Positions 1,741-39,476 of a DNA stretch of 64,000 nucleotides are shown here, piece after piece. The DNA is from Eledone cirrhosa (taxonomy: Eukaryota). Location: positions 302,250,001-302,314,000 of the forward strand of contig OZ024742.1 in assembly GCA_964016885.1 (NCBI GenBank), written 5' to 3'. The translations under genes and the position numbers were made by a program. The notes beneath the pieces were generated by a model. That model did no database searches. It was not told where the DNA came from and saw only the letters and a list, made by a program, of their open reading frames with translations. Position 1 is the first letter of the stretch. Each line of letters starts with the position of its first letter.

Positions 1741-2160
1741 TAACAAACCACATATATAAACAACTAAGAAGTAGTTCATATAATCAAATAACTGTCTTTG
1801 ATGATTTTTCTGCACAACAAACACTTTTTCCTATTATGTCTACTTTGGCGTGCATTATACTTCAGATCTCTCAATCACTCTAGTATACACCCGCTTCCAC
1901 TCCTCCACACAGACACTTTATATCTGCTTAGTATTGACAGTTGCAAGAATGAGTACTCAATACCATGCTAGTGATGAATATAATTTTTATTCAGGAAAAG
2001 TTTGAGTTTATTTAATCTTGATTTTCTCTTTTGTATAACCACAACCACCACATATGTATATATATATATATATATATATATATATATATATATATATATA
2101 TATATATATATATATATATATATATATATATATAGAGAGAGAGAGAGAGAGAGAGAGAGA

Positions 2161-2540
2161 GAATAGTAAAGCGAAAAATCAGTGATGCATCTGAACTCAA
2201 TTTATTGTGTGTTACAATTGTTTCGCCGGCGGACAGCTCGAGACACGATCATTGTGTGGATCTGTCTGATTCTGGACCCGCAGGTTCGACGGACACGTCT
2301 AGTGAGAGAATATGCTCCGAAATCATTAGACGTGTCCGTCGAACATGCGGGTCCAGAATCAGACAGATCCACACAATGATCGTGTCTCGAGCCGTCCGCC
2401 GGCGAAACAATTGTAACACACAATAAAATGAGTTCAGATGCATCACTGATTTTTCGTTTTCTATTATATCATACTCTGCTCTGTAAGAGCATAGAGTGCT
2501 CAACCGGCATATCACCTATGGAAGCATCTTAGCTACCATA
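2161..2540 (+). mobile_element. Palindromic (fold-back) non-coding element between microsatellites, probable PLE terminal-repeat derivative
   Basis: ~140-bp near-perfect inverted arms (2161-2305 / 2322-2467); GAAA-CAATTG-TA-ACAC and AATAAA followed by ACTCT...AGAGTGC tail. Confidence 0.7.
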
Positions 2541-2620
2541 AGACACACACACACACACACACACACACACACATATATATATATATATATATATATATAT
2601 ATATATATATATATATATAT

Positions 2621-2805
2621 AACGAGGGAGGTGTGGTAAGGAACCAAATGGACCATAACGCACCAGAGTACTCAATACTTAGGGTAATAGGAAAATGTTT
2701 AACCCCGACGGCAGAGCTAAAGCCGTTTCGACGGCTATTTTTGGAGTCCAGAAATAGCCGCCGAAACGGCTTGAGCTCTGCTGTCGGGGTTAAACATTTT
2801 CCTAT
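2621..2805 (-). mobile_element. Short fold-back element, family A copy 1, inserted in (TA)n
   Basis: Hairpin 2687-2805 centred on CGGCTATTTTTGGAGTCCAGAAATAGCCG; tail TATTGAGTAC on minus strand; homologous to 6770-6968. Confidence 0.75.
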
Positions 2806-2905
2806 ATATATATATATATATATATATATATATATATATATATATATATATATAGAATAAGGAAAAGCGAAGTAGTTTCAGATGTTCAAGTCCTTTAATA
2901 ATAAT

Positions 2906-2979
2906 GCTGTGATATATATTTCAATGACGACACTGGCCACACTGTTCTGTGTGCGAGTGTCGTGTCATCATCAGACAGC
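2906..2979 (-). ncRNA. Type I hammerhead ribozyme (inverted copy)
   Basis: Reverse complement of the motif at 3861-3934. Confidence 0.8.
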
Positions 2980-35350: not shown

Positions 35351-36410
35351 ATATTTAAGTATCGAGAGAGAGAAGGAGGGATAGGCAATACATGTAGTTA
35401 TTTGCCAATAGCATATGCAGAGGGTGCTCAATACTAGTGCCGGCAGTGTTAAATATTAGAAGTGTTAGTATCTAGTGGGCGAGAGAATTAGCAGAGCGGA
35501 AGCACGTGGAGAAGTGAATAAAGGAGAACAGACCGTTAAAACATGTTTATTTAAAATAGCACCTACCTACGTTTCGCCCGAATGGGATTCTCAAGGGCAT
35601 AAACAGCGTTCCTTACATGACCCGGAACGGGCTTCTCAAGGGCATAAAAAGCGTTCCTTACATGACCCGGAATGGGTTTTTAGAAATAAGTTCACGTCAA
35701 AGTTCATTCTTCGTAAAAAAAAACAAGTATTGATTTTGCAGTAGGTCAAGGGAGATAACTCTCGCCGGCGTTCGAGCAGTATTTTCCGGACGACTTTTTT
35801 TATCAGTTACTACTATGTGGTTACTACCCTACCATTTTCGATACGCACAGGGTCAGGTATGCAACGTTAGTTTCGAGATGTTTGTTTGTTGCGCCTGCCC
35901 GCCTGGGTCGATTCATGCCGGGTCTGGGATGCATGGTTAGTTTCCGGATGTTTTTTGCAGCGCCTGCCCGCCCGAGTGTTAAAGCTCGGTGCAGGGAGAC
36001 CCGGTTTACGGTTTCCATTCCTCGTTCTTATTCCATCTGGAGTAGGATATTTTTAAGCGGTGTGTACAGCCTATCGTCGTTTCAGTTCTGCTGTTGATGA
36101 GCTCGTGGGGTGCCGTTATGATATGGTAGAGCTCCATGAGGCAAAGCTCGCACTTCCTCTTGAAGTTGTACGGTGCTGCTCTGCCGACAATTTCCCAGTG
36201 CGTGGAGAAGCTGATGTTTGAGTCTTTTAATGCTGTGATGTAGTTCGCGAGCGAAGTGGAGTGTCTTAGTTTCTTGTTTGCGAAAGAGTGGAGATGTGTT
36301 CGAAATCTATTTTTGAACGGGCCAGAGGTAGCCCCTATATAATGTTTAACGCTATTATGGCTAGTTACGGTGCGCCTATATATAACCCTATCAGTCAGGC
36401 AGTTACCCCT
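35351..36410 (-). mobile_element. 5'-truncated PLE (GIY-YIG domain + 3' UTR) between (TA)n tracts
   Basis: Minus-strand frame [63 protein letters not shown]; 3' UTR has CTTGAGAA..CGAAACGT variant hammerhead and TATTGAGCAC. Confidence 0.85.
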
Positions 36411-36504
36411 ATATATATATATATATATATATATATATATATATATATATATATATATATATATATATATATATATATATATATATATATATATATATAT
36501 ATAT

Positions 36505-37428
36505 AAATAAGGTTAATATATCTGAGGGTACAATGTACCCCCAGAAATACATAGGGTGTCTATGATTTAAGGTGGTTCTATGGTAATAATTTGATATACC
36601 AGAACTTAATATCAAGATAAGCAGAACAAGTAAAATTCAACCAATTTTTCAAAATAAATCAAAATTAATTTACAATTAAAATTAATCAAAATTAAAAAAT
36701 ATAATATAAATATTTACCTATTCAAATGGCCCTTACTGTACAGTTTCACGTTGAAAAACATTAGATATCACATGGATATTAATGGAAAAGCAAAGATCAT
36801 CAGAGAAGCATTTTCCTTTCCTAGGGTTAAAAACCCCAGGAACGATAAAATATATGACCTCACTCCAACTAATACAGGTCTGAAAGGTCGTGAAAGTGAC
36901 CCATAAATACGTTGGTGTATAGTGAAGGCGAGAAATCGTAGACTTGTTGTCTATGTTCGCTACCAAAAAAAATGTTTAGCAGCTAGATAGAACGACAGAA
37001 TTTTTTCTCTACATAATTGGAGAATAATGAATAAGGTTAATATATCTGAGGGTACAATGTACCCCCAGAAATACATAGGGTGTCTATGATTTAAGGTGGT
37101 TCTATGGTAATAATTTGATATACCAGAACTTAATATCAAGATAAGCAGAACAAGTAAAATTCAACCAATTTTTCAAAATAAATCAAAATTAATTTACAAT
37201 TAAAATTAATCAAAATTAAAAAATATAATATAAATATTTACCTATTCAAATGGCCCTTACTATCCATGTGATATCTAATGTTTTGCAACATGAAACTGTA
37301 CAGTAAGGGCCATTTGAATAGGTAAATATTTATATTATATTTTTTAATTTTTATTAATTTTAATTGTAAATTAACTTTGATTTATTTTGAAAAATTGGTT
37401 GAATTTTACTTGTTCTGCTTATCTTGAT
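36505..37428 (-). mobile_element. Non-coding PLE-like unit: ~235-bp direct repeats plus inverted copy, with hammerhead-like motif
   Basis: 36505-36737 repeats at 37030-37261; 37262-37428 is inverted; minus strand CTGATGA...GAAA-CTGTACAG-TA at ~36728-36808. Confidence 0.75.
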
Positions 37429-37630
37429 ATATATATATATATATATATATATATATATATATATATATATATATATATATATATATATATGATTGCCGGG
37501 CCATGCGTTATGTCCTTGGGCAAGATACTTTATTTCACTTTGCTCCTTCTACCTGGAGTTGCGACCGATAACATTGTTTCCTCGGTCCGATTTGACGAAA
37601 GTCGATCGATTGTCGATATATATATATATA

Positions 37631-39136
37631 ATATAAGATCAAAAGATGGTTAAAAGAGTTCCAAGTATTTTATTATGCGCATTTCAAAAGCAAATATCAT
37701 CATGAGATGATATCTGCGTTTTCGTCAGATAAAATAGGGATACATGAAGGTTAAAAAACACTTGTGAATAGTGAAGTTTTAAATCAACATATGAAAAATA
37801 ATTTAGGATTGATGTGTGATATTGGGAAAAAAGTGAGGGAGGTTGGAAAGGGTAAGGAAGAGGAGGAGATGAGAGTAAAGAATGGTGGGGGAGGAGTATA
37901 AGAAAGAAGCATGAGAGAGGAGGAGAGATGGGTGATAGAGAGAGCGAGATAGCCTTTACAACTGAGAAAAATATATATTGTCTCACAGGGAGAAGTTAAA
38001 AAGCCGTTGGAAGATAATAGATAATTTAAAAGAATTTGAAATTAAAAGTTGATGAAGAGAAAAAGGGGTTAAGAATAATATTAAATTAAGGTTTGTATAT
38101 TGAAGGGTTTAATAATATGTGCGAGGAAAAGAAATTGTTAATATGTATTATTAAAATAAAAATATTAATGTTATTAAGGATATAATGTGAAATGAAGTAG
38201 AAGAGTGGATGTGTTATGAATTTAGAGGAATTAGTTAGTGTTTAAGTTTGTTTTTATGTAATGTAATATGTGTGCGTAATATATGTAAATTGTTTGTTCA
38301 TATATATTTTGATGTTAGATATTTTTTTCTTACTTAAACATTCTTTTCTTCTTTGCTTTCTGCGCTCATTTGTAAGCAAACAATTTACATATATTACGCA
38401 CACATATTACATTACATAAAAACAAACTTAAACACTAACTAATTCCTCTAAATTCATAACTCATCCACTTTCTACTTCTTTTCACATTATATCCTTAATA
38501 ACATTAATATTTTTATTTTAATAATACATATTAACAATTTCTTTTCCTCGCACATATTATTAAACCCTTCAATATACAAACCTTAATTTAATATTATTCT
38601 TAACCCCTTTTTCTCTTCATCAACTTTTAATTTCAAATTCTTTTAAATTATCTAATATCTTCCAACGGCTTTTTAACATCTCCCTGTGAGACAATATATA
38701 TTTTTCTCAGTTGTAAAGGCTATCTCTCTCCCTCTATCACCCATCTCTCCTCCTCTCTCATGCTTCCTTCTTATACTCCTCCCCCACCATTCTTTACTCT
38801 CATCTCCCCCTCTTCCTTACCCTTTCCACCCCCCCCTCACTTTTTTCCCAATAAAACACATCAATCCTAAATTATTTTTCATATGTTGATTTAAAACTTC
38901 ACTATTCACAAGTGTTTTTTAACCTTCATATCATGTATCCCTATTTTATCTGATGAAAACGCAGATATCATCCCATGATGATATTTGTTTTTGAAATGCG
39001 CATAATAAAATACTTGGAATTCTTTAAACCATCTTTTGATCTTATATTATTTATACTCCAGTCCTACAAACTGTAGAGTGCTAATTATCCGATATTTGCA
39101 TTGCTTTATTGTGCTACAATAAAACTCATCTCCTAC
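37631..39136 (+). mobile_element. Large fold-back non-coding element (~670-bp arms) with a hammerhead at each end
   Basis: 37631-38297 is the reverse complement of 38376-39050; tail ACTC..AGAGTGC at 39056-39081. Confidence 0.85.
38944..39010 (+). ncRNA. Type I hammerhead ribozyme (inverted twin at 37668-37734 with CTGACGA core)
   Basis: TTTTAT-CTGATGA-[AAACGCAGATATCATC..GATGATATTTGTTTT]-GAAA-TGCGCA-TA-ATAAAA. Confidence 0.88.
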
Positions 39137-39476
39137 ATATATATATGCAGAGGTTATATTTAATTTGTTGGGATTCAATAAGCTTAAAGATTTTTATAAC
39201 TGACATAAAGCACTCAACAGAAGAGTGGAGTAAATACACAATATATTAATTGTTTCTACTTTTGGCACAAGGCCAGCAATTACCCAGTACATTACTGGTA
39301 CTTTATTTTATCGACCCCGTAAGGATGAAAGGCAAAGTGAACCTCGGCGGGATTTGAACTCAGAACGTAAAGGGACGTAACTATGTAACTATGCTGGAAA
39401 GCATGGCGTCCGACTCTCTACCGATACTGCCAATCAATATATTAATAAATGGAAACTATATTTATAAAACCATATT

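Follow-up and report, generated by a model that had tools for sequence, protein, structure and literature searches.

Hydra-clade elements and a recurring motif in the window

The window analysed here comprises 64,000 nucleotides (nt) of contig OZ024742.1 of Eledone cirrhosa, a species whose genome (3.0 Gb) is rich in (TA)n. It contains a coding Penelope-like element (PLE) of the Hydra clade, truncated copies of further Hydra families and non-coding hammerhead units. An earlier note on this DNA had reported a motif at 15 sites in the window and read it as a conserved cis signal: on comparative evidence, the motif is one of two bulged hairpins kept in Hydra-clade PLEs across many animals. Coordinates are given in Table 1.

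The translation of the coding PLE contains MRWK, SDKT, CSCRVKSEC, CTLC and CPH (the RWK, DKT, CxCX5C, CxxC and CxH motifs) and no CCHH; motifs and homologues together indicate one open reading frame (ORF) in which a reverse transcriptase (RT) is followed by a C-terminal GIY-YIG-like endonuclease (EN). The Hydra clade is defined by RWK, DKT, a CxCX5C linker, C-terminal CxxC and CxH, and a C-terminal endonuclease (PMC8557442). A Pfam search of Hydra ORFs gave no match, so the clade assignment rests on motifs and homologues. A search of the element's own genome returned 143 scored matches (90-100% identity), and the family shows (TA)n insertion, a pseudo long terminal repeat (pLTR), inverted copies and an optional tail. 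Two other identities were rejected: Naiad/Chlamys (N-terminal endonuclease, DKA, no canonical hammerhead), a profile that the translation of this element does not fit, and Neptune/Nematis, because the CX2-5CxxC linker and CCHH endonuclease are absent from the ORFs of the window. No relative was found among viral contigs.

The hammerhead-like motif of this element was recognised by reading the sequence against the hammerhead consensus. Most copies seen of the coding family have a CCGA rather than a CUGA core, with L010, L028 and L029 (locus numbers) differing there. An Rfam scan of the window gave no match at gathering score among the best 150 of 298, almost all of them simple-repeat microRNA artefacts, and the hammerhead was not among these 150.

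A bulged hairpin conserved in Hydra-clade elements

Ninety Hydra loci were fetched from metagenomes and genome bins, and 85 of them (60 families) were used; five (L211, L217, L222, L259 and L271), whose match lay at contig edges or in pieces, were left out. The top de novo 7-mer upstream of the ORF was GAGCACT, present in 47 of the 68 loci that have sequence there, compared to 0.9 in shuffled sequence. The motif lies 10-120 nt before the ORF and takes the form of a hairpin: RCTC, an inner stem-loop, a 2-nt bulge (TT, TA or TC), GAGY, and an unpaired RCT. That ACTC and GAGT can pair had been pointed out before: the pairing is real and belongs to this bulged hairpin, of which only half had been seen.

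Pairing was counted after 26 of the 64 instances, in which the 5' arm had more than one candidate, had been set aside. Of the 38 unambiguous, non-redundant cases, 37 have a Watson-Crick first inner pair (C-G 26, T-A 11; permuted mean 21.7), 22 such a second pair and 19 such a third (permuted means 11.3 and 10.0), and the excess is seen only in the register with the 2-nt bulge. Mapped onto a quickly built protein tree (41 families), the first inner pair changes from C-G to T-A or back six to seven times, at least four to five of these switches being forced by strong branches, and is paired in 40 of 41 families. The closing pair in own-genome clusters is A-T in six, G-C in four and unpaired in none; a folding program recovers the closing helix in 55 of 61 instances. 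MAFFT left the 5' arms of 68 hairpins unaligned, and these figures involve no covariance model or tool-based pair count.

The hairpin can also be seen by eye in the published consensi Hydra-2_Amil, Hydra-1_Ajap (two copies) and Hydra-2_Ajap, and a variant of it in Hydra-1_Crog; three motif 9-mers occur six times in the 584,000-character supplement of PMC8557442, four times in Hydra termini. Eleven loci with Hydra PLEs (L270-L280) come from bacterial genome bins and are probably contamination from host animals.

To these comparisons can be added counts from the genome. In 60 evenly spaced 10-kb samples, RCTC-N8-40-GAGYRC occurs 25-85 nt before the TA run in 35 of 597 flanks (some of them near-duplicates produced where a TA run was split), compared to 3 in antisense and 1.8 in shuffled sequence; at other repeats it occurs in 2 of 179 CA flanks and 0 of 61 GA flanks. 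Clustering of 140 samples left 1037 clusters, 16 of which contain the structural pattern (antisense 6, shuffled 0.5). Both the enrichment over shuffled flanks and the positional constraint that the earlier note had anticipated are present, and the signal is real and positioned.

Two hairpins mark two insertion ends

The second copy of the hairpin had been missed; the pair lies downstream of the hammerhead and upstream of the ORF. Two copies, 58-83 nt apart, precede the ORF start in 28 loci (23 families), and second copies are present in the window in the coding PLE, in a 1,301-nt non-coding unit and probably in a ~615-nt unit. Of 24 insertion ends from other sources, 19, spread over 14 of 16 families, fall within 0-4 nt on the 5' side of one of the two hairpins, a placement with a chance of ~5% per end if a 200-nt region is assumed (four contig-end rows and one TA-only match were left out of 29 rows; the exact end base is blurred by TA microhomology). 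Copies of the window's coding family end 0-8 nt before hairpin 1 (the inner end) or mostly 3-4 nt before hairpin 2 (the outer end, ~70 nt after the start of the hairpin 1 at 13718). In 30 of 57 cases TATA or ATAT stands in the 12 nt that precede the hairpin, compared to a background of 13%. Since ends sit just before each hairpin, the PLE tail corresponds to the interval between the hairpins; and since inserted copies end just 5' of either one, each hairpin likely binds the RT and sets the start of complementary DNA (cDNA) synthesis.

These ends bear on an option raised in the earlier note, that of an internal core promoter. In this view the motif would serve the pLTR as its core promoter or would signal where transcription starts. 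Penelope and a Chlamys element do have internal promoters near the boundary of pLTR and 5' untranslated region (UTR) (PMC8557442), and a position shortly before the ORF would suit a promoter. However, covarying pairs across loops of ~5-85 nt suggest a single-stranded fold, each hairpin copy adjoins an insertion 3' end, and the 5' ends of full-length copies are scattered, though these mark RT stops and not transcription starts. The position of the motif at the start of the 5' repeat, also reported earlier, is due to truncation by chance: in 30 full-length copies the upstream repeat begins anywhere between -318 and +79, counted from the motif (-318 being the edge of the reference used). The promoter reading has little support and is most improbable.

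Head-to-head insertions have one end of each kind

If both hairpins are used in one event, the two arms of a head-to-head insertion should end at different sites. Among 61 deduplicated head-to-head insertions from the same genome, 58 combine an inner with an outer end, none has two ends alike and three have an odd end. One own-genome family search contributed its first five families; C12, N368 and N366 were recounted separately. The prediction was tested on 20 long copies that were fetched: eight had both ends, six of them cleanly mixed, two near-mixed and none alike. From other sources, two loci of one family were mixed. Arms diverge by 1-6% within an insertion and by 5-12% between insertions, and nearly all centres are distinct: unless gene conversion has intervened, such insertions are independent events, each from one source.

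The arms also speak to the possibility that single priming is followed by fold-back self-priming, which makes the palindrome, the hairpin serving only as a packaging signal or second-strand stop. Self-priming has been proposed for PLE inverted repeats (PMC3846280), and the arms do share variants. Yet each arm holds sequence that the other lacks in ~10 of 44 short pairs (a few of the 44 being duplicate rows) and in six long copies, a result that simple fold-back cannot produce: there the tail-less arm extends further 5' than the tailed arm, so that neither can be a copy of the other. Moreover, the solo direct copies L349 and L351 end at the inner site. We consider fold-back a very unlikely source of these insertions.

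Two observations concern the arms of one abundant Hydra family (hairpin 1 at 6895). In the stub at 6774-6966 and in L281-L305 both arms of the short palindrome stop ~60-65 nt before hairpin 1, inside the hammerhead, which suggests a shared stall point. A recurring G>A on the tail-bearing arm of L281-L305 was discounted, being most simply a bias of query selection.

A model for priming at both hairpins

The arrangement of ends leads us to propose that each hairpin probably positions an RT start, and that a single event draws on both starts, one from each target strand, with the PLE tail as the outcome. The RT would bind each hairpin on the RNA, and cDNA would start a few bases upstream of it; the GIY-YIG domain would nick both (TA)n strands, and the 3' ends of the target would each pair with UA-rich bases that precede a hairpin. 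The cDNA that starts before hairpin 2 would form the outer end with the tail, and the one that starts before hairpin 1 the inner end without it; the two would then join head to head, the tail being the stretch between the hairpins. Since hairpin 2 is never copied into its own end, the template would need to be a tandem or circular RNA.

A more specific version has the hairpins as two matched docking sites for an RT dimer, with a single RNA, tandem or circular, serving both nicked strands, each of them primed at a fixed site; we hold this to be evenly balanced between right and wrong. A dimer is predicted for the Poseidon protein (PMC11167929). Prediction of a homodimer for residues 1-480 of the Hydra protein P0003 scored 0.00, which counts neither for nor against a dimer.

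Ends beside a hairpin could also be set by cleavage: the hairpins would fold in single-stranded cDNA or as a cruciform, and the GIY-YIG endonuclease would cut beside them and so resolve the intermediate. Craig et al. attributed the tail to endonuclease-mediated resolution (PMC8557442), and the tail of the D. virilis element is required for endonuclease recognition (Pyatkov 2004, as cited in PMC11167929); the TA-rich bases before each hairpin resemble the target, and wobble counts favour RNA no more than DNA. Against this, the arm expected to be cut runs past the inner site and ends at the outer one in six long copies, the strict rule of one end of each kind demands extra assumptions under endonuclease trimming, and in the Poseidon element the measured RT starts coincide with the tail ends (PMC11167929). 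Cleavage beside the hairpins is thus an unlikely, though not negligible, explanation.

Several points weigh against priming at the two hairpins. The support for it is comparative throughout, binding and priming being deduced from it, and counts of G-U against A-C do not tell RNA from single-stranded DNA. Five of the 24 ends from other sources fall outside the 0-4 nt window, and inner ends in other own-genome families, mostly 0-12 nt before hairpin 1, spread to ~12 nt or more. Two of six published consensi (Hydra-1_Amil and Hydra-1_Obim) show no clear motif by eye. A first count, made before deduplication (n=54), gave 49 mixed insertions, two with two outer ends and three with an odd end, and L275 possibly has two inner ends. 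The identity of arms could stem from gene conversion, and arms of equal reach, found in 21 of the 44 short pairs, are also what fold-back gives. The two starts measured in vitro, drawn on below, are those of the Poseidon element PAc, which belongs to a different clade and primes without target homology (PMC11167929). Finally, non-Hydra families have two ends and mostly mixed pairs (6 of 7) without this motif, so that the pattern does not in every case require the hairpin; possibly the mechanism is shared widely and only the signal is confined to the clade.

PLEs with Neptune/Nematis-type endonucleases are likewise inserted in (TA)n, as seen at the 3' ends of L368, L366, L370, L361 and L356; two of these families show a pair of fixed ends each, separated by 55 and 30 nt respectively, with mostly mixed pairs and no hairpin. 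The CX2-5CxxC linker and CCHH endonuclease were found in 13 of 16 GIY-YIG loci parsed, and GAGYRC at none of the six Neptune/Nematis-type loci with 3' ends that could be followed. The signal is therefore Hydra-specific, and not general to TA-inserted elements as first supposed.

Non-coding units carry both hairpins

The 1,301-nt unit has a longest frame of 74 codons and a best tblastn E value of 0.27. Among 526 candidates, 40 scored junction copies (95-100%) were obtained, and L372 contains a tandem of two full units. Both hairpins are present and the ends obey the same rule, all three resolved loci fitting it. In being a non-coding tandem unit with a type I hammerhead, it resembles the non-LTR retrozymes. 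The ~615-nt tandem unit gave no Hydra ORF match. Under the model above, such units, provided that the two hairpins are retained, would be moved in trans.

The sites of the window

Thirteen of the 15 sites hold up. Twelve are full hairpins (2472, 3993, 5294, 6895, 10150, 13718, 21551, 23431, 26892, 35422, 39055 and 39209), and 2667 belongs to a copy of the 6895 family in which the 5' half is deleted. The 5' half at 10150 is GCTC rather than ACTC and pairs with GAGC; the initial A at 13718 is private to this copy, most family copies having GCTC; and the 5' half of 35422 is a GCTC at 35497, ~70 nt upstream. The site at 34058 was rejected: RCTC is missing, the repeat is 8 nt away, and the sequence matches (77-88% identity) the 3' region of L356, a PLE with a non-Hydra endonuclease. 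The site at 1950, where the TA run is upstream rather than downstream and which has no second copy in the sample, could be called neither way.

The elements bearing these sites had been described as otherwise unrelated. They are mostly 3' stubs of different Hydra families, or non-coding units with the same signal, so that the hairpin is common to autonomous PLEs and non-coding units: longer copies tie the families of eight of the 15 sites to Hydra ORFs (least firmly for 39055), three sites are in the non-coding tandem units, and no ORF link was found in the sample for the families of 2472 and 26892. For the 6895 family, hairpin 2 (a GTGC variant) and the ORF start are seen in L301, and an endonuclease match in L302. 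The proposed position near the repeat junction applies to 11 sites, which lie 38-75 nt from the next simple repeat, but not to 3993 and 10150, which are internal, at tandem junctions. Likewise, a hammerhead core is found upstream in the same copy at five sites, whereas AATAAA has no consistent placement.

Table 1. Elements, hairpins and related features of the window
Feature	Position	Strand	Remarks
Hairpin 1 of head-to-head insertion	2473..2500	+	family without ORF tie
Head-to-head stub of 6895 family	2622..2802	-	5' half of hairpin 1 deleted
Non-coding hammerhead element	2847..5362	+	inverted arm ending at inner site, partial tandem, one 1,301-nt unit
Hairpin 1 at tandem junction of 1,301-nt unit	3993..4031	+	
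1,301-nt unit	4062-5362	+	ends at outer site
Hairpin 2 of 1,301-nt unit	4069..4090	+	GCTC-C...G-TT-GAGCGT; 7 nt past outer end
Hairpin 1 in tail of 1,301-nt unit	5295..5332	+	
Hairpin 1, abundant Hydra family	6895..6921	+	stub 6774-6966
Hydra-clade PLE	10136..13787	+	truncated upstream repeat, 5' UTR, broken RT-EN ORF, 3' UTR, hammerhead, tail
Hairpin 1 in upstream repeat of coding PLE	10150..10173	+	GCTC...GAGCACT
Hairpin 2 of coding PLE, in 5' UTR	10226..10303	+	GCTC-C...long loop...G-TC-GAGCACT; 3 nt past outer end
RT-EN ORF of coding PLE	10317-12461	+	broken, 3 pieces
Type I hammerhead-like motif	13612..13690	+	CCGATGA core; by reading sequence
Hairpin 1 in 3' tail of coding PLE	13718..13741	+	
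Hairpin 1, 1-nt bulge variant, Hydra family	21551..21573	+	stub 21425-21610; ORF ~270 nt upstream in L062, L114
Hairpin 1 of second, ~615-nt tandem unit	23431..23458	-	
Likely hairpin 2 of ~615-nt unit	23868..23960	-	TCTC-C...G-TT-GAGA, long loop; by eye, low certainty
Hairpin 1, abundant family	26892..26913	+	stub 26749-26953; no ORF tie in sample
Second coding Hydra family	35351-36512	-	ends at 35351
Hairpin 1, second coding Hydra family	35423..35497	-	~60-nt loop; hairpin 2 seen in L174
Hairpin 1, family downstream of Hydra ORF in L154	39055..39082	+	
Hairpin 1, family ~1.6 kb downstream of Hydra ORFs in L070, L125	39209..39231	-	

Repeat detection in the window is dominated by microsatellites. 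Some relatives of the second coding Hydra family have open frames of 940-1009 codons compared to the usual ~720; a reading of TGA codons in this family as selenocysteine was rejected, the TGA being the stop codon. A degraded Hydra endonuclease fragment (652-1274, - strand) stems from an old insertion. Another abundant two-ended family, represented by L098 (near 8000-8120) and by flanks related to it, with ends in the window near 9611 and 21313, has a variant hairpin, GCTC...TC-GAGC-CCT; no ORF link was found for it. Three fragments (40933-41379, +; 44820-45263, +; 55202-55684, -) resemble ORFs of other non-LTR retrotransposons, only the last having a weak RVT_1 match. A ~28-29-nt tandem repeat at 61767-62650 (+), far from TA runs, contains ACTC...GAGTAC by chance and is a false positive.

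Relation to known systems

The elements described here share with the Hydra clade of PMC8557442 the motifs of the protein, insertion into (TA)n, a hammerhead or hammerhead-like motif, partial tandems, inverted 5' copies and a tail on one side; their tails are ~60-100 nt long compared to 30-40 nt. The account of the clade given there describes, in its available parts, no such hairpin, and names the origin of the PLE tail and of tandem and inverted ends as an open question. The one-sided tail, the inverted copies and the use of two RT starts are already published. In the sole biochemical study, which reports two internal starts and no defined signal, the tail of Poseidon PAc is the interval between these starts as measured in vitro (Frangieh et al. 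2024, PMC11167929). PAc is like the system proposed here in that both target strands are extended and RNA 3' of the starts is required; it differs, besides its clade, in that the starts lie in an 'AC-rich stem loop' inside the ORF and that no repeated signal is reported in the available text. Non-LTR retrozymes (bioRxiv 10.64898/2026.07.22.740005) are tandem non-coding hammerhead units believed to use the enzymes of PLEs. The 1,301-nt and ~615-nt units are like them but larger, and the available text of the preprint describes no signal in cis by which they would be mobilised. A description of this hairpin was not found in the literature within reach (outside it lay subscription papers, Repbase reports, figures, and the supplements of PMC11167929 and of the preprint): the hairpin is apparently an undescribed, clade-wide cis element of a known group of retrotransposons.

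A short, deeply conserved and duplicated hairpin beside each end gives exact mutations with which the mechanism can be tested. It also marks those non-coding hammerhead units that the Hydra enzyme could move, and defines element boundaries for annotation. If the dimer version of the model is true, programmed twin priming would explain why there is a tail, why repeats stand head to head, why partial tandems are needed and which non-coding passengers are chosen; the hairpin would then be a portable 25-nt signal for directing cargo RNA into (TA)n.

Two further systems invite comparison. In twin priming by L1, two primers arise from one target break, and in stringent long interspersed nuclear elements (LINEs) a 3' stem-loop is read by the element's RT. 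In the Hydra elements, in contrast, both starts are fixed and both arms copy the same sequence; moreover, the signal lies 3' of the start and is thus not copied into that end. The template-boundary and alignment elements of telomerase are RNA structures beside a short region that pairs with a DNA primer. The telomerase boundary hairpin lies 5' of the template and stops synthesis, whereas the hairpin here is 3' of the start: the likeness is one of analogy only. The top fold match of P0003 (a Hydra protein model, pLDDT 93.6) is TERT (E 9e-9), with low TM-scores of 0.31-0.35. PLE reverse transcriptases are the sister group of telomerase, and the way in which they position their template therefore bears on the origins of telomerase.

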